64,000 nucleotides of DNA from an uncultured Chloroflexia bacterium (GCA_963833225.1 CAWHXD010000019.1:224001-288000), one strand, 5' to 3'. Shown: positions 8,539-55,962, numbered from the stretch's first letter. Numbers and translations: made by a program. Notes: a model not told the origin generated them from the sequence alone.

Positions 8539-8634
8539 CTACCAGCGCTTGGCGCCGTCGATGATGAAGCCGAAGGCGGCCATCGAGCCGAGGAACAGGA
8601 TCGCGCGGTTGGCGATGTACTTCATCTTGAGCAT
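8539..8634 (-). CDS. 31-aa signal-peptide-like small protein MLKMKYIANRAILFLGSMAAFGFIIDGAKRW
   Basis: SD AAAGGA upstream of ATG 8634; GC-rich third positions; same architecture and same DGAKRW end as 3311-3412. Confidence 0.8.
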   Translation of the reverse strand: MLKMKYIANRAILFLGSMAAFGFIIDGAKRW

Positions 8635-8844: not shown

Positions 8845-10296
8845 TCAGGCAGGTCCGTCCGGGACGGCGAACCAGAACGTGCTGCCCTCGCCGGGCACCG
8901 ACGTGACCCGGAGGTCACCGCCATGGGCGCGCACGATCTGGCGGGCGATCGGCAGCCCGAGGCCCGTGCCCCGTGGGCCGTCGGGCACGGTGTCCGAGGC
9001 CTGCCGGAACGGCTCGAAGATGCGGTCGAGGTCCGCCTCGGGGATGCCCCTGCCCGTGTCCGCCACGGCGACCCGCACCTCGCCGTCCGGCCGGTCGACG
9101 GTGACCCTGACCCGGCCTCCCGGGCTGAACTTCACGGCGTTGGACAACAGGTTGATCACGACCTGAACCAGGCGCTCGGCATCACCGTTGATCTCCGGCA
9201 GGTCGCTGGCAACCTCCAGCTCGAGGCGCACCCCACTCACCTCGAACAGGGCCGATGTCGCGGCCGTGGCGCGCCGGACCACGTCCTCGACACGGATCGG
9301 GGCCATGCGCCACTCGAGACGGCCTGCCTCGATCTTGGCCAGGTCGAGGAGATCATTGATCAGGCCGGTGAGCCGCTCACCCTCGTCCACGATGATCCCG
9401 AGGTTGTCGCCCACCTGGCGGACGGCGCGGTCGACCCTGGGCTCGGTGCGGTCCACCACCGGGAACACGACCTCGTCGAGGCGCTTCCGGTTGAGGCGGG
9501 CGAAGCCGACCACCGACGTCAGCGGCGTCCGCAGCTCGTGCGAGACGTTGGCCAGGAAGCGGCTCTTCGCCTCGTTCGCGAGCTCGGCGGCGGCGCGTGC
9601 CTCCTGGGCCTCCGTCGTCGCCGCGAGCAGCTCCGAGGTGCGTTCGGCGACGCGGGCCTCGAGGACCCGATTCTGGGCCTCGAGCTCGGCGTGGAGCCTG
9701 GCGGACTCGATGCCGCCGGCAAGCAGCGAGGCGACCGTGAACAGGAGCGGGCCGTCGTCGGGCTCCAGGGGTTCGCCGCCTCGACGATCGGGGACGATCA
9801 GGACGCCAAGCGTCCCGCCCGCGGTGACCAGCGGGGTGCCGACGAGCCCGGTGGACCCGAGGACGGCGGCCAGCCGCCGGTTCGTCTCGTCGGCATCGGC
9901 GGCGGCATCGCGAACGTGGAGCGGGCCCTCGGCGCGGGCAAGCAGCGCGGGCGCGGCCGCCGGATGCTCGATGGGCACCGCGAGGTCAGCGAGGAGCATC
10001 GAGATGCCGGGCGGTCCGCCGGCAACCTGCCAGCCCCCGATGCTCCGGGTCACGGGGTCGAGGAGGCCGAGGACGCCGCGCTCGAAGGCCAGCCTGTTCA
10101 CGATCTCCGGGAGCGCCACCTCCGTGAGCCGGGCTGGATCGCGGATGGACGCGATGGCGATGCCAAGGGCGTTGATGGTCGCGAGCTCCGAGAGCCGCCG
10201 GCGAAGCCGGTCCTCGAGGGCCGCCGAGCGACCGGCGGCACCGGTGGCGCGGTTCGCCGAGGAGGCGGCTTCCGCTCGGTCCGGCCGGAAGCTCAG
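8845..10296 (-). CDS. Cytoplasmic GAF-domain sensor histidine kinase
   Basis: FLANVSHELRTPL (H box), NLLSNAVKF, DTGRGI, GTGLGL; frame stays coding-like upstream of GTG 10119; candidate CTG start at 10296. Confidence 0.88.
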   Translation of the reverse strand: MSFRPDRAEAASSANRATGAAGRSAALEDRLRRRLSELATINALGIAIASIRDPARLTEVALPEIVNRLAFERGVLGLLDPVTRSIGGWQVAGGPPGISMLLADLAVPIEHPAAAPALLARAEGPLHVRDAAADADETNRRLAAVLGSTGLVGTPLVTAGGTLGVLIVPDRRGGEPLEPDDGPLLFTVASLLAGGIESARLHAELEAQNRVLEARVAERTSELLAATTEAQEARAAAELANEAKSRFLANVSHELRTPLTSVVGFARLNRKRLDEVVFPVVDRTEPRVDRAVRQVGDNLGIIVDEGERLTGLINDLLDLAKIEAGRLEWRMAPIRVEDVVRRATAATSALFEVSGVRLELEVASDLPEINGDAERLVQVVINLLSNAVKFSPGGRVRVTVDRPDGEVRVAVADTGRGIPEADLDRIFEPFRQASDTVPDGPRGTGLGLPIARQIVRAHGGDLRVTSVPGEGSTFWFAVPDGPA

Positions 10297-49907: not shown

Positions 49908-52583
49908 TTGACCGAGCCGGGCCGGGGGTCGACCCAGTTCCGTGCGCGCGCACCCGCCGAGGGCCGCCTCGCCACGGGCGCGCTCGGGGCGCCCCTGCGC
50001 ATGATCATCCGCATGCCGGCCTGGCTGAGGCTGTGGTCCTTCAACGGGCTCCTGGCCGGTCTCGCCGCTCTCCTGTTCTTCGGGTTCCTGGTGGGCCAGG
50101 ATGCCTTCGGCTCGCCCGTGCACGTCCCCTGGTATGTCATGGCGGTGGCGTTCTTTGCCGCGGAGCTCAAGGTCGTCGACGTCCACTTCCGGCGCGAGAA
50201 GCACTCGTTCACGCTGAGCGAGGTTCCCGCGGTCGTCGGGTTCTTCGTCCTGACCCCCTCGGAGTACCTCCTCGCGATGCTGGTCGGGACCAGCTTCGCG
50301 CTCCTCCTCGACCGGCAGTCGCCGCCCAAGTTCGTCTTCAACCTCTCGGCGTACGCGGCGAGCGCGACGGTCGGGCTCACGGTGTTCCGCATCGTGGCAA
50401 CCCCGGGCGGTGCTCCCGATCCGTTCGACTGGGTCGCCGCGTTCGCGGCCACGTCGGCGGCCACGATCGTCATCTCCGGCTCCATCGCGACGGCCATCAC
50501 CGTGTCGGACGGTGCGCCGCAGTTCCAGAAGCTTCCGGAGATGATCCAGTTCGGGCTCCTGGTGGCCATCGCCAACACCAGCCTCGCCCTGCTGGCGGCC
50601 GCCTTCCTGTGGAGCGACCCGCGGCTGCTGTCGCTCCTGGTCGTGCCGCTGGTGGTCGTCTTCCTCGCCTACCGCGCATACGCCTCCGAGCGCGAGAAGC
50701 ACGAGCGGCTGGAGCTCCTCTACCAGTCCAGCCGGATCCTCCAGCACTCGCCCGAGCTGGACTCGGCCCTCGCCGCCCTCCTGGAGAACGCCCGCGAGAT
50801 GTTCCGGGCCGAGCGGGCCGAGATCGTGCTGTGGCCCCGTGATGGCGGCGAGGAGGGCCTGCTGACGGTGGCCCGCCATGACGCGCCACCGGAGGTGATG
50901 CAGCCGGTGATCATGTCCGCGATCGATCCCCTCCACCGGCGCATCGGCCTCGAGCGCCGGGCCTTCCTCCACGTCTCGGCGACCAGGGACCTCGATCCGA
51001 TCCGGCATGCGATGGCGGTCCCGCTGTTCGGCGAGTCGGGCCTGATCGGGTCGATCGTGATCGCCAACCGGCTCACCGAGGCCACGACCTTTGGCATCGC
51101 CGACCTCCGGCTGCTCGAGACGCTGGCCAACCAGTCCGCGGTCGCCCTCGAGAACGGCCAGCTGGAGCAGTCGCTCAGCGAGCTGTCGCGACTCAAAGAG
51201 GAGCTTCGATACCAGGCGTACCACGACTCGCTCACGGGTCTTGCCAACCGGAGCCTGTTCGTCGGCCGGGTTGACCAGGCCCTCACGGGGGCACGCCCCG
51301 GCGAGATGCCGGCGGTGCTGTTCCTCGACCTCGACAACTTCAAGGATGTGAATGACACCCTCGGCCACGCCGCCGGCGACCAGCTCCTCGTGGCCGTGGC
51401 CGAGCGAGTGCGGTCCTGCGTCCGGGCGAGCGACGTTCCGGCGCGGCTCGGCGGCGACGAATTCGCCGTCCTCGTGGATGACGCTCCGGGCCTCGCGCGC
51501 AGCCAGGCGGTGGCCAGGCGCCTGATCGAGTCGCTGGCGACCACCTTCCCCGTCGAGGGCCACGACCTGAAGATCTCGGCCAGCATCGGCATCGCCGCCG
51601 GCCAGGGCGCAGCGCAGGGGCCGGACGACCTGCTCCGCAACGCCGACGTGGCGATGTACACCGCCAAGCAGGCCGGCAAGAACCGGTTCGCGGTGTTCGA
51701 GCCCACCATGCATGCCGCGATCGTGGCCCGTCATGCGCTGTCGAGCGAGCTCTCGCGCGGAATCTCGGACGGCGAGATCGTCGTCTACTTCCAGCCCGTG
51801 ATCACCCTTGCGACGGGCACCACCTACGGCGCCGAGGCCCTCGCGCGCTGGCGGCATCCGGTCCGGGGCATCGTGGAGCCGGACGACTTCATCCCGCTCG
51901 CGGAGGAGAGTGGCGCGATCATCCCGCTCGGAAGGGCTGTCCTGTTCGAGGCCTGCCGCCAGGCGGCGGTCTGGCGAGCGGGAACCGGCGGCCCGCTGAT
52001 CCTGAGCGTCAACCTGTCCGCGGCCCAGCTGGGCCGCGAGGACTTCGTCGACGACCTCAAGGACATCCTCCGCGCGACCGGGCTGTCGGCCAACCGCCTG
52101 GTGCTGGAGATGACCGAGACCGTCATGTTCCATGACACGCAGACCACGATCGCTCGCCTCACCGCCCTCCGGGAGCTGGGGGTGCGGGTCGCGATCGACG
52201 ACTTCGGGACGGGCTACTCGTCGCTTGGCTACCTGCGCCGCTTCCCGGTCGACATCCTCAAGATCGCGAAGGAGTTCATCGTCGGGGCAGGCGGTGGTCC
52301 CGATGGGTGGGCATTCGCGCACTCCATCGTCGCGCTTGGCCGGACGCTCGGGCTTCAGATCATCGCCGAGGGGATCGAAGAGGAGGCCCAGCTGGAGCAG
52401 CTGCGTGAGCTGGGCTGCGAGCTTGGGCAGGGGTTCCTGTTCGCTCGCCCGATGCCCGGCGACGATGTCGCCCGGATCTTCGCCGGCGCGCCGTCGTCGG
52501 GTGGGGACCCGGACAAGGCCGCTTGGGTTGCCGGGTGTCCTTCGACGACAACCGCGCTGGACGTCTCGATAGTCGCGAGGTGA
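49908..52583 (+). CDS. Membrane sensor (multi-TM, MASE-like)-GAF-GGDEF-EAL diguanylate cyclase/phosphodiesterase
   Basis: AAGGAG then TTG 49908 (or ATG 50001); about 7 TM segments; [15 protein letters not shown]-site, [29 protein letters not shown]. Confidence 0.93.
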
Positions 52584-52587
52584 CCGC

Positions 52588-53169
52588 ATGTTCATGATCT
52601 ACTCGGTGCTCATCGGGCTGGTCGCGGGGGCTGCCGTCGGAGGCCGGCTGAGCGGCCTCGCGACGCTCGAGTTCCGGTGGGCACCCGCGATCATCGCCGG
52701 CCTGCTCATCCAGGTCCTGCTGTTCAGCAACCCGATCGCCGAACGGATCGGCGACCTGGGGCCCGCGGTCTACGTCGGCTCGACGCTGCTGGTGCTCGCC
52801 GCCGTCGCCCGCAATGCCGGCATCCGCGGCATGCCGGTGGTGGTGGTCGGGGCCGCGAGCAACGTCGTCGCGATCCTGGCCAACGGGGGGTTCATGCCCG
52901 CGAGCCAGGGGGCACTCGCGGCCCTCGGCAAGTCGGCGCCCGTCATCTATTCGAACAGCTCCGTGGTCGAACAGCCCGCCCTGTGGCCGCTGACGGACAT
53001 CTTCGCGCTGCCGACCTGGGTGCCCGGAGCCAACATCTTCAGCGTCGGCGACGTCCTGATCGGGATCGGGATCGGGGCCACGATCGTCATGGCGATGCGG
53101 GGCGTGGCGGCCGCCCGGACCGGGGCCGACCCTGGTGAATCGCGAATGGCCGGTGCGCCCGGGCACTGA
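52588..53169 (+). CDS. DUF5317-like integral membrane protein (candidate aspartic peptidase)
   Basis: GGRLSGL, SNVVAILANGGFMP, LWPLTDIF, IFSVGDVLI recalled as typical of DUF5317; 4 nt after the DGC/PDE stop. Confidence 0.8.
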   Translation: MFMIYSVLIGLVAGAAVGGRLSGLATLEFRWAPAIIAGLLIQVLLFSNPIAERIGDLGPAVYVGSTLLVLAAVARNAGIRGMPVVVVGAASNVVAILANGGFMPASQGALAALGKSAPVIYSNSSVVEQPALWPLTDIFALPTWVPGANIFSVGDVLIGIGIGATIVMAMRGVAAARTGADPGESRMAGAPGH

Positions 53170-53204
53170 CCCGACCGGATACCGGGGATCACCCATCCGG
53201 GTGG

Positions 53205-53233
53205 TTGGGACGGCCGGCGGGTCGCCCTATGGT
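53205..53233 (+). promoter_or_regulatory. Possible sigma70 promoter of the riboswitch-peptide transcript
   Basis: TTGGGA-N17-TATGGT. Confidence 0.4.
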
Positions 53234-53271
53234 CGGCGCTGAGGCAAGCACCCTCCATCGAGGACTCCGTC

Positions 53272-53341
53272 CAGGGCAAACCCGTCGCGAGGCGGGGACG
53301 CAAAGCCAGGGATCTTCTTCGGAAGAACGCCCGGTTGCCGG
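53272..53341 (+). ncRNA. c-di-GMP-I (GEMM) riboswitch
   Basis: AGGGCAAAC-ccgtc-GCGA-ggcgg-GGACGCAAAGCC...GGTTGCCG matches the class I consensus (GGCAAAC, GNRA-capped P2, GACGCAAAGCC, GTTRCCG). Confidence 0.92.
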
Positions 53342-53379
53342 GGCCGAGGTGCGGACACCCTGCTACAGGGAGTGACACT

Positions 53380-53469
53380 GTGAAGGCGAACCTGGCGCGC
53401 TTCACCTGGGCCGTTGCGCTGCTGGCATCGATGGCCCTGGCCATCGGCGCAGGGATGCGGTGGTACTAG
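53380..53469 (+). CDS. 29-aa signal-peptide-like small protein MKANLARFTWAVALLASMALAIGAGMRWY
   Basis: SD AGGGAG 53367-72, GTG start, TAG stop; the only co-oriented ORF with an SD directly under the riboswitch. Confidence 0.8.
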   Translation: MKANLARFTWAVALLASMALAIGAGMRWY

Positions 53470-53707
53470 TCGCCATGGAGCCCATGCTCAAGGCGCAAGC
53501 CTTCCGCGTGCCCATGGTCGGAACCCCTCTCATCGCCACTCTCGCTCCGGAGGCGGGACAGCGCTGGTGATCACCGGTCGGGCTTCTGCCCGGCCATCGC
53601 GAGAGGCCGTCGGGGAACCGACGGTCTTCGCCGTTAACGAGCGGCCTCGTGCAGCCACTGCCGGGGTCTCGGCAGGCGCCCCCTATCGGACCGTTGCGGC
53701 CCCGTGG

Positions 53708-53736
53708 TTGCGCCCGTGAGATCGTGCGGGTATTCT
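53708..53736 (+). promoter_or_regulatory. Sigma70 promoter of the ilv-leu operon
   Basis: TTGCGC-N17-TATTCT. Confidence 0.6.
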
Positions 53737-53778
53737 TCGCGGACCCGTCACGGGACGGGATCAACGGAGTCGGGTCGC

Positions 53779-53997
53779 TTGGACTTCTTCCAGGGTCGCA
53801 GCCGCAGCCGCGTTGCCATCGTCGTGACGGCCGATGGTCGCCGCGTGAACGTGCCCCTGCGCGACCTCGAATCCCAGGACGTAACCCCCCTCGCGCTTCT
53901 TCGCTCGCTCCTTGCCGGCCTTGAGAGCCTTGTCGGCCTCCTCATTACCGGCTCCCGGCGGGAGAACGGAGGGACGCGGAGGAGCGGTCGCCACTGA
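53779..53997 (+). CDS. Putative ilv leader peptide (Leu/Val/Ile-rich); start uncertain (TTG 53779, or GTG 53824/53845)
   Basis: VAIVV and LALLRSLLAGLESLVGLLI with five CTT codons that are rare here; followed by a terminator. Confidence 0.65.
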   Translation: MDFFQGRSRSRVAIVVTADGRRVNVPLRDLESQDVTPLALLRSLLAGLESLVGLLITGSRRENGGTRRSGRH

Positions 53998-54022
53998 GGC
54001 CGCTACCACCGAGAACCAACGG

Positions 54023-54049
54023 GACCCTCGCCGGGCGGCGAGGGTCTTT
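54023..54049 (+). terminator. Attenuator terminator before ilvB
   Basis: gaccctcgcc-gggc-ggcgagggtc-TTT. Confidence 0.75.
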
Positions 54050-54096
54050 ACATGTCCGGCGGTCGCGGGGCCGCCGGAGAAGGGACCTGAGCGGAC

Positions 54097-55962
54097 ATGA
54101 CGATCACCAAGGGCGAGCCGCCGGCCACCGGGGCGACGGAGGCGCCGCCGCGTCGCAGTCACGTGCCGGGTGACGGGACGGCGGGTGCGGCGGCGGTCGA
54201 GGATGCGCGCCGGGCCATGCTCCACGAGGTCCGGGGTCGCAAGCGGACCCGGATCGGCGCGGACGCCCTTATGGAGGCACTCATCCTCCAGGGGACGGAC
54301 ACCCTGTTCAGCTACCCGGGCGGCGTCATCCTGCCGATCTACGATGTCCTGGTCGACTACCCGCAGATCCGGCACATCCTCGTCCGCCACGAGCAGGGCG
54401 GGGGGCACGCCGCCGATGGCTACGCCCGCGCAAGCGGCAAGGTCGGCGTGTGCATGGGGACGAGCGGTCCCGGGGCCACCAACCTCGTCACGGCGATCGG
54501 CACCGCCCAGCTGGACTCGGTTCCGATCGTGGCGCTCACCGGCAACGTGCCCGGCGCGCTGATCGGGAAGGACGCGTTCCAGGAGATCGACATCACCGGC
54601 ATCACCCTGCCGATGACCAAGCACAACTACCTGGTCCGGAACGCGGACGACATCCCGCGGGTCGTCGCCGAGGCCTTCTACCTCGCCCGGACCGGCCGGC
54701 CGGGCCCCGTCCACATCGACTTCACCAAGGACGCCCTGCAGCAGGAGACGCGCGCCGAGCACCCCTCCCTCGACGAGGTGATCGCCGGTCTGCCGGGCTT
54801 CCGCCCCACCTTCGAGGGTCACCCCAAGCAGCTCAAGACCGCGGCCCGGGAGATCGCCCAGGCCAAGCGGCCGCTGATCCTCGCCGGGCACGGTGTCCTC
54901 ATCGCCGAGGCTTGGGACGAGCTCAAGGCGTTTGCGGAGAAGGCCCAGATCCCCGTCGCCTGGACCCTGCTCGGCATCGGCTGCATCGACGAGGAGCACC
55001 CGCTGGCCTACGGCTACATGGGCATGCACGGCTGGAAGCACGTCAACCGCGCCATCCAGGCGGCCGACCTGCTGATCGCGATCGGGATGCGCTTTGACGA
55101 CCGGGTCACCGGCAGCGTCAAGACCTACGCCCCCTACGCGCGGATCATCCACGCGGACATCGATCCGGCCGAGATCGGCAAGAACGTCGCCGTCGAGGTC
55201 CCCATCGTGGGCGACGCGAAGAACGTCCTCGCAGGCCTCACTCGGCTGGTCCACGCGGTGGAGCCCGAGGAGCGTTCCGAGTACCTGGCCCAGCTCCGGG
55301 CCTGGCGCGAGGAATCCGAGGCCAGCTCCTGGCACGGCTCGGGCGGCTCCGACAGCGGCGTGCTCACGGCGGACTACGTGGTGGGCCGGATCGGGGACCT
55401 CACGGACCATGTCGGCACCTACGTGGCCGACGTCGGCCAGAACCAGATGTGGCTGGCGCGCTATACGCGGTTCCGGCGGCCACACAGCCACATCAGCTCG
55501 GGCGGCCTGGGCACCATGGGCTACGCCGTGCCGGCCGCGATGGGCGCCGCGCTGGGCAATCCCGCGGCCGAGACTTGGGCCGTGTGCGGTGACGGCGGCT
55601 TCCAGATGACGAGCCAGGAGCTGATGACGCTGGCCGCGGACCGCATCCCGGTCAAGATCGCGCTCCTCGACAACAAGAAGCTGGGCATGATCCGCCAGTG
55701 GCAGGAGATCTTCTACGCGGAGAACTACCACTCCTCGCACCTGCCGGGCCCGGACTTTGCCAAGCTGGCCGACGCCTACGGGATCCCCGCCTTCAAGGCA
55801 ACCCGGACCGACGAGGTGGACGATGCCATCAGGGCCGCACAGGCCGTGGACGGTCCGGCGCTCATCTGGTTCGAGATCGAGCAGGAGCAGAACGTGTACC
55901 CGATCATGCCGGCGGGCAAGGGCCTGTCCGACCTGATCGAGCATCGGGGGCCCGAGGAATGA
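54097..55962 (+). CDS. ilvB: Acetolactate synthase large subunit
   Basis: YPGG, RHEQ, TSGPGATN, FQE, GDGGFQM, GMIRQWQ. Confidence 0.96.
   Translation: MTITKGEPPATGATEAPPRRSHVPGDGTAGAAAVEDARRAMLHEVRGRKRTRIGADALMEALILQGTDTLFSYPGGVILPIYDVLVDYPQIRHILVRHEQGGGHAADGYARASGKVGVCMGTSGPGATNLVTAIGTAQLDSVPIVALTGNVPGALIGKDAFQEIDITGITLPMTKHNYLVRNADDIPRVVAEAFYLARTGRPGPVHIDFTKDALQQETRAEHPSLDEVIAGLPGFRPTFEGHPKQLKTAAREIAQAKRPLILAGHGVLIAEAWDELKAFAEKAQIPVAWTLLGIGCIDEEHPLAYGYMGMHGWKHVNRAIQAADLLIAIGMRFDDRVTGSVKTYAPYARIIHADIDPAEIGKNVAVEVPIVGDAKNVLAGLTRLVHAVEPEERSEYLAQLRAWREESEASSWHGSGGSDSGVLTADYVVGRIGDLTDHVGTYVADVGQNQMWLARYTRFRRPHSHISSGGLGTMGYAVPAAMGAALGNPAAETWAVCGDGGFQMTSQELMTLAADRIPVKIALLDNKKLGMIRQWQEIFYAENYHSSHLPGPDFAKLADAYGIPAFKATRTDEVDDAIRAAQAVDGPALIWFEIEQEQNVYPIMPAGKGLSDLIEHRGPEE

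Follow-up and report, generated by a model that had tools for sequence, protein, structure and literature searches.

MgrB acts on PhoQ as a small membrane-protein feedback regulator of a sensor, and AgrD/AgrB/AgrC and ComX/ComQ/ComP are peptide quorum sensing systems. In signaling by cyclic di-GMP (c-di-GMP), the nearest printed precedent for the locus described here is the CD1980.2 family of C. difficile, whose members are membrane-associated proteins of 58 amino acids (aa) that are encoded behind class I c-di-GMP riboswitches and promote sporulation (PMC13724677, Nat Commun 2026). The parts of that paper that deal with the family report no homologs outside C. difficile and no known partners, and describe control by premature termination (PMC13724677). 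On the enzyme side, the membrane domain MASE9 was defined by Galperin and Chou, and the passages devoted to it propose a ligand that binds within the membrane (10.1101/2021.11.05.467447). Here we analyze a stretch of 64,000 nucleotides (nt) from an uncultured Chloroflexia bacterium (GCA_963833225.1 CAWHXD010000019.1:224001-288000; hereafter the window), in which a membrane c-di-GMP enzyme, a DUF5317 protein, a c-di-GMP riboswitch, and two micropeptide open reading frames (ORFs), pep1 and pep2, follow one another. This unit points to a previously undescribed peptide layer in second-messenger control.

The unit lies entirely on the plus strand. It starts with an enzyme that carries a MASE9-like domain with multiple transmembrane (TM) segments, followed by GAF, GGDEF (with an RxxD I-site), and EAL domains (49908..52583, assigned by Pfam and translated motifs), and continues with a five-helix DUF5317 membrane protein (52588..53169, PF17248), a c-di-GMP-I-type aptamer (53266..53343, RF03167 covariance model), and pep1 (53380..53469). 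These four elements had been named in an initial annotation made from the sequence alone, and Pfam, the covariance model, and translation place all of them where it had put them. It had overlooked two more: pep2 (53475..53570), and a GC hairpin resembling a terminator, with a weak U tail (53605..53635, fold z-score of -3.5), that closes the riboswitch-pep1-pep2 unit. The 29-codon ORF itself is real, and it starts with GTG and not ATG.

Our main result is that this small ORF is a conserved gene, that it is the cargo of a riboswitch, and that its genetic tie to DUF5317 and a multi-TM c-di-GMP enzyme reaches well beyond the genus. pep1 encodes a predicted single-pass membrane micropeptide of 29 aa (MKANLARFTWAVALLASMALAIGAGMRWY), called from its conservation and codon pattern, and its GTG is located 36 nt past the aptamer end and 7 nt after AGGGAG. 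We found it in all 23 orthologous loci collected from related genomes. The residues at codons 15, 16, 19, 20, 24, and 25 are kept through three to four synonymous codons: Ala24 is present in 23/23 sequences using GCA, GCG, GCC, and GCT, Gly25 in 21/23 using three codons, and Leu15, Ala16, Ala19, and Leu20 behave in the same way. Arg and Lys replace each other ahead of an invariant Trp, and both A24 and W28 are invariant in an alignment of 24 sequences that includes two from Bacillota. Because these residues stay while their codons change, pep1 is, by its codon pattern, under protein-level selection from codon 10 on.

The second micro-ORF, pep2 (MEPMLKAQAFRVPMVGTPLIATLAPEAGQRW, ending EAGQRW), begins 5 nt past the pep1 stop, although its start is uncertain, with the frame also open from a GTG at 53460. 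In most orthologous loci, pep1 is likewise followed by another ORF with the ending ..[GQW]-x-R-W. Only its tail is conserved ([ED]-x-[GQW]-x-R-W); the N-terminal part varies in length from 9 to ~35 aa and also in character, being a hydrophobic helix at one extreme and nine hydrophilic residues at the other. None of the peptides is matched by a Pfam or NCBIfam model, and a protein atlas searched with a 33-aa ortholog returned only unnamed clusters of 29-32 aa, at 0.87-0.89 (guide value 0.9). In another metagenome-assembled genome (MAG; locus L090), pep1 lacks its hydrophobic part and is in frame with pep2, giving a 63-aa ORF that ends EAGRRWI; judged from its sequence, it is a natural variant that retains the pep2-type peptide only.

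The linkage to DUF5317 was measured in 46 non-duplicate loci with at least 600 nt downstream, in each of which the same strand was searched up to 900 nt past the gene. Of these loci, 38 contain an ORF with an AG-x-[KR]-W or RW tail in that stretch and 34 have the riboswitch core, whereas such ORFs occur on the reverse strand in 2/46 and upstream in 0/44. The initial annotation had staked its proposal on a conserved small ORF near DUF5317 homologs, and the genetic link that it put forward is thus strongly supported. Many of the 46 loci had been picked for a nearby riboswitch; in a riboswitch-independent subset of 18 loci, gathered with the single distant DUF5317 homolog P0260, the RW-tail ORF is still found downstream of DUF5317 in 15, and in two further Bacillota loci of the subset (L085 and L086) the peptide stands upstream of a MASE9-HD-GYP-DUF5317 array. 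Among 151 related genomes, the riboswitch family is present in 82, often in several copies, and DUF5317 in 94; comparison of the two tables shows a stand-alone DUF5317 gene followed by the riboswitch within ~350 nt at no fewer than 28 sites, spread over 27 of these genomes.

The association extends across phyla. Two Bacillota MAGs encode a small ORF (MKKWGKIIPVILQIAGIISLVLAGVAGWKWG and ..RKWSKIIPVALQVATLLCLVLAGIAGFKWGW), then MASE9-HD-GYP, then DUF5317, with a c-di-GMP riboswitch undetectable at both loci. A phylum-wide draw found DUF5317 in 40/121 genomes, and an HD-GYP or MASE9-like gene lies within ~2 kb in 9 of 12 enlarged loci from other Chloroflexota families. In one of these, a class II-type riboswitch accompanies a pair of identical 31-aa ORFs that end AGADSRWA, together with MASE9-HD-GYP and DUF5317; another combines DUF5317 with an ORF whose translation ends AGAEGKWV and with a MASE9-like gene. 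The genome of the window has a parallel module on a second contig (locus L044, G000:C5:41500-47500, minus strand), headed by a c-di-GMP-II riboswitch (66.6 bits) and followed by a 10-aa ORF (MGPTKAFKSW), a 29-aa TM ORF (MKDRLLRVLVALSAVAAVALAGGASLRGF), a MASE9-like HD-GYP protein of 498 aa, and a DUF5317-MFS fusion of 732 aa. Because the trio of peptide, DUF5317, and membrane enzyme stays together through changes of gene order, catalytic domain, and riboswitch class, the comparison argues for a direct functional tie among its members.

The riboswitch is the sole Rfam match in the 64-kb window (cmscan). Its best model is RF03167 (c-di-GMP-I-GGC; 62.8 bits against a gathering score of 59, E 1.9e-12), but the binding pocket differs from that variant: the RF03167 consensus reads ..ACGCGAAG.. 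with a G, where the window and all 22 aligned orthologs read ..ACGCAAAG.. with an A. The G that strictly marks c-di-GMP-I-GGC is accordingly absent from the window and from the 22 aligned orthologs, and their pocket bases GACGCAAAGCC equal the RF01051 consensus, with A at ..ACGC(A/G)AAG... Weinberg et al. are said to have defined the GGC variant in 2017 by a G at this pocket position. The riboswitch of the orthologous locus L095 is assigned to RF01051 itself (57.2 bits, gathering score 35). Since the pocket A matches the RF01051 consensus, the pocket appears canonical and c-di-GMP is the likely ligand; the earlier label of a consensus c-di-GMP-I riboswitch was thus fair, even though the variant model scores best.

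Downstream of the aptamer, the Shine-Dalgarno (SD) sequence AGGGAG pairs with an upstream complement in a hairpin (53356..53374) found in 20 of 23 minimum free energy (MFE) folds, whose stem sequences vary between lineages with complementarity kept, as judged by eye. A second hairpin occupies the start codon and codons 1-9 of pep1 (53380..53405, -10.3 kcal/mol in a local fold) and is present in 16/23 MFE folds; its closing pair changes from G-C to A-U in loci L043 and L045, and an inner pair from C-G to A-U in L095 (by eye). Codons 1-9 are nearly invariant at the DNA level. Because both the SD and the start codon are held in hairpins, the expression platform probably extends into the pep1 ORF, with control at translation initiation.

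Such a platform, with codons 1-9 frozen in DNA and folded into the start-codon hairpin, would also suit ORFs that are regulatory leaders (for ilvB or a small RNA) or by-products of the expression platform, their peptides being functionless. This reading could further draw on the Val runs seen in some pep2 versions and on ilvB, which lies ~450-600 nt downstream in the genus. We nonetheless consider it very improbable: pep1 shows amino-acid selection beyond codon 9, the hairpin ends the unit ahead of ilvB, the unit stands away from ilvB in other genera and families, and the homologous Bacillota peptides are encoded without any riboswitch.

As for the transcript, the arms of the terminator-like hairpin differ in sequence between orthologs and remain complementary, often followed by TTCGTTTT (by eye). 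Strict scans of 52900-54150 returned neither an intrinsic terminator consensus nor a sigma-70 promoter, and a TTGnnn-N16-18-TAnnnT pattern occurs upstream of the aptamer in 3/24 loci. Between DUF5317 and the aptamer (53170..53265), many orthologs have AGTACCTCYGGG in common, with a TAnnnT element following ~25 nt later and a small hairpin of the form GAGG..CCTCC; these may be the promoter and 5' leader of the unit, without matching the sigma-70 consensus. Two RNA-library contigs from two studies align to 53284-53470 (3 differences) and 53362-53581 (6 differences) at 97-98% identity, a weak hint that the unit is expressed as a short transcript; they do not cover DUF5317 or 53614-53700, a gap that carries no weight.

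The membrane enzyme is encoded by a gene of 2.7 kb with clear Pfam matches to GAF, GGDEF (E 7.8e-46), and EAL (E 3.1e-73). In the translation, the GGDEF motif is intact with the RxxD five residues upstream, and the EAL-domain motifs are intact as well, including EGIE..GQG, so the protein, which carries both sets of catalytic motifs, is bifunctional-looking. Residues 1-331 have no match to the Pfam MASE9 model (PF20972) at E<=10. However, this TM domain aligns with the MASE9 region of a Bacillota HD-GYP protein by BLASTP (E 6e-06, 194 aa) and by hhalign (probability 88.9%, E 2.4e-06, 189 columns), and the Bacillota neighbor enzymes themselves match Pfam MASE9 at 36.6 and 35.1 bits (cut-off 24.3). 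Below the Pfam threshold and linked through pairwise and profile comparison only, homology of the membrane domain to MASE9 has moderate support. Within the class, the enzyme next to DUF5317 is TM-GAF-GGDEF-EAL in this family, sometimes divergent, and TM-HD-GYP in another family.

Of special interest is the DUF5317 protein. Its gene (193 codons) starts 4 nt past the enzyme stop codon, and its product matches PF17248 at 87.4 bits (cut-off 25) over profile positions 2-150 of 151. An AlphaFold2 (AF2) model with a pLDDT of 91.9 has five membrane helices and a conserved loop (residues 99-152). Among 55 sequences, P104, L135, D137, P142, and P146 are invariant, and N99, G101, M103, S152, G154, and D155 nearly so, giving the conserved stretches N99-G-G-x-M-P104, D137, and S152-x-G-D155. 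By the positive-inside rule, this loop and the pep1 tail would both be exposed on the outer face of the membrane. Our literature search found no paper that mentions DUF5317.

The initial annotation had taken DUF5317 to be protease-like. We examined a possible likeness to signal peptidase II motifs and have dropped this candidate. In Pfam at E<=10 the protein matches DUF5317 only, and no AgrB-family peptidase; a sequence search of the PDB gave no relevant match, and Foldseek with the model returned nothing at E<=0.001. The top hit of a wide structural search is a designed helical barrel (Z 6.2), in the noise range, as are 5dir_A and 6ryp_A, which we take to be LspA (Z 4.7, ranks 17 and 19), and several UbiA-type or CDP-alcohol transferases at Z near 4.7. 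Against 17 Peptidase_A8 domains of related genomes, hhalign gave a probability of 1.4%, and canonical signal peptidase II is encoded separately in 31/31 genomes. In these sequence and structure searches, no solved structure or known family accounts for DUF5317. A complex prediction of DUF5317 with pep1 scored 0.22 (mark 0.32), which is no answer and weighs neither way.

These results bear on the possibility that the peptides are released signals of an agr-like or ComX-like kind, with DUF5317 or a signal peptidase freeing or modifying the short [KR]-W tail, which the initial annotation put at ~GMRWY, MASE9 sensing it, and c-di-GMP feeding back. The C-terminal AG-x-[KR]-W is kept while the preceding part of pep2 is free in length and character, which is a leader-plus-core pattern, and cleavage might occur at the pair of small residues that precedes the tail. 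In the paralogous module, DUF5317 forms a fusion with an MFS transporter of the 'secretion effector' type, its loop with the invariant D137 and the near-invariant D155 would face outwards, and the hydrophilic forms of pep2 keep the idea alive. These same hydrophilic forms, however, lack an export signal; DUF5317 has no relationship to proteases in Pfam, PDB, Foldseek, or hhalign searches, and, with a canonical signal peptidase II present in all 31 genomes, it does not fill that role. Pheromone specificity usually diversifies, whereas this tail is constant across phyla, which fits a structural partner at least as well. We regard release as improbable, and a secreted pheromone is no more than a hypothesis here. 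Comparably doubtful is a variant in which the RW-tail peptides are the ligands of MASE9 and DUF5317 is a new kind of intramembrane peptide handler that would process, modify, or present them (the MFS fusion exporting them), so that the released or presented tail sets the balance of c-di-GMP synthesis and breakdown and the class I or class II riboswitches auto-regulate the supply of precursor. If true, it would amount to a direct peptide-to-c-di-GMP circuit, possibly acting from cell to cell, with no phosphorelay.

The reading that we favor, tentatively and knowing that it may well prove wrong, is that the micropeptides are membrane-resident partners of DUF5317 and MASE9 and close a c-di-GMP feedback loop through the riboswitch. 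pep1 and pep2 would be made from their own short transcript, with the c-di-GMP riboswitch at its head and the hairpin at its end, and would be controlled at translation initiation by the hairpins that hold the SD and start codon. pep1 would insert with its N-terminus inside and its C-terminus outside, placing the AG-x-[KR]-W tail at the outer face near the DUF5317 loop. In physical contact with DUF5317, it would be a resident partner to the MASE9 domain, shifting the enzyme between c-di-GMP synthesis and breakdown. Because the riboswitch would make peptide synthesis dependent on c-di-GMP, the result would be a feedback circuit. Feedback by c-di-GMP through the riboswitch is itself a reasonable inference, strengthened because class I and class II riboswitches both precede such peptides.

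Several observations weigh against membrane-resident partners. pep2 is short and hydrophilic in several species (for example 9-19 aa), so membrane residence cannot apply to every form of pep2; where it is hydrophilic, only the tail seems to count, and a released or soluble motif would suit this equally. The fusion of DUF5317 to an MFS exporter hints at transport of something. A peptide fitting the pattern was found in only 2 of the 12 enlarged loci of other Chloroflexota classes, and loci L053, L054, and L104 have DUF5317 with no peptide found. Furthermore, the related genomes are non-independent samples, and the RNA-library contigs are possibly derived from DNA.

The peptides might instead be general membrane effectors of c-di-GMP that work with DUF5317 on another target, in transport, the envelope, or development, the enzyme serving only as a local source of signal. 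The same riboswitch type precedes other small TM ORFs away from DUF5317 (13 of the 31 best-scoring loci, including one in the genome of the window), a paralog with an RW tail at 8539..8634 has no adjoining riboswitch or c-di-GMP gene, and in locus L051 DUF5317, riboswitch, and pep1 occur without a c-di-GMP enzyme within 5 kb; the C. difficile family, as described, offers a precedent (PMC13724677). Across phyla, however, an enzyme with the same family of sensor domain stays beside DUF5317 and the peptide despite changes in order and catalytic domain. Such constancy would be difficult to account for if the members had no direct functional tie; we hold this option to be rather unlikely, and retain the resident-partner model as our working view.

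Other elements of this genome and of the clade are related to the unit. The RW-tail paralog mentioned above is a third micro-ORF (MLKMKYIANRAILFLGSMAAFGFIIDGAKRW, 8539..8634, minus strand), located ~210 nt downstream of a GAF histidine-kinase gene (8845..10119, minus strand); its DNA is found in 27/36 genomes of the genus and its translation ends ..GAKRW in 12/12 loci. A second copy of the riboswitch in the genome of the window (locus L001, G000:C8:994006-994087, minus strand) precedes a 31-aa TM ORF (MATARPRLDALVRVLAVAALALAGIASVRPI) with AGGAGG upstream. This ORF belongs to the family ..RLDALVRV..RPI that follows the riboswitch, away from any DUF5317, in 13 of the 31 best-scoring loci, and it has a tail similar to the one of the 29-aa ORF in the class II module. 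Other copies of this riboswitch type (L004, L005, L007, L009, L019, L028, L030, L016, and L020) precede proteins of 130-175 aa with an N-terminal TM segment ..EGALIA.LVVGLVAG..FAAKGG.., and in another family (L022 and L026) the riboswitch precedes longer frames, open at the end of the stretch read, with ..AGYTGAG(I/V), presumably a subtilase-like motif. From these cargos, envelope proteins would seem to make up most of the clade's c-di-GMP regulon.

A DNA block at 53690..53995, past the hairpin and ahead of ilvB, is conserved in 16/16 loci of the genus. It contains a repeated GGTTGCG..GGTGGTTGCGCC motif, its plus strand encodes ..VAIVVT.., and it may be an ilvB leader or attenuator. A 77-codon frame on its minus strand, open in the window, is interrupted by stops in 3/16 orthologs and was therefore not called as a gene.

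The riboswitch can be compared with described systems: like other c-di-GMP-I riboswitches (RF01051/RF03167), it scores above the gathering threshold and has a canonical core. It differs in that its cargo is a terminator-bounded pair of micro-ORFs and that its platform reaches into the first nine codons. The enzyme resembles the MASE9 proteins in joining an integral-membrane sensor domain to HD-GYP or GGDEF-EAL outputs, and the passages of the preprint that treat MASE9 hold no occurrence of DUF5317 or of small proteins (10.1101/2021.11.05.467447).

The resemblance to agr, on which the initial annotation had modeled the locus, and to ComX lies in the gene trio of a precursor-like peptide, a membrane protein with a possible processing role, and a multi-TM receptor, and for ComX also in a conserved Trp near the C-terminus of the peptide. 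Each agr membership feature that we tested came out negative: there is no homology to AgrB or AgrC (nor to ComQ), pep1 of the window lacks the Cys that AgrD needs for its thiolactone (a tail Cys occurs in 1/23 orthologs), and the candidate receptor is a GAF-GGDEF-EAL protein without kinase domains, whose output would be c-di-GMP turnover. The tail is also conserved, not strain-specific, and the host is a Chloroflexota MAG and not a classical Gram-positive. The likeness to MgrB and PhoQ is that of a single-pass peptide made under the output of a pathway and, as proposed here, acting back on a membrane sensor; the differences are that c-di-GMP would be read by a riboswitch instead of a promoter driven by a phosphorelay, and that DUF5317 is a third conserved partner.

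A search of the literature on DUF5317, MASE9, and c-di-GMP riboswitches with small proteins, which did not cover supplementary files, found no description of the trio. The locus gives three orphans a testable context: DUF5317, the signal of MASE9, and a family of ~30-aa peptides overlooked by gene callers. Two riboswitch classes have been recruited independently in front of cargo of one kind, an argument that selection favors the control of these peptides by c-di-GMP. Should the peptides act on the enzyme, RNA and micropeptide would together form a compact feedback loop acting on a second messenger; should they be released, this would be a new kind of peptide signaling.

In the CD1980.2 family, as far as that paper describes it, a c-di-GMP-I riboswitch likewise stands in front of a small membrane-associated protein that exists in several copies and had previously gone unannotated (PMC13724677). 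Compared by description only, the C. difficile proteins are longer (58 aa against 29-37 aa with an AG-x-[KR]-W tail here), and they are controlled by premature termination where the control here looks translational (PMC13724677). No DUF5317 or MASE9 partner is described for them in that account, whereas the peptides of the window pair with DUF5317 and a c-di-GMP enzyme (PMC13724677). The unit provides a second, apparently unrelated example of a c-di-GMP riboswitch whose cargo is a tiny membrane protein.

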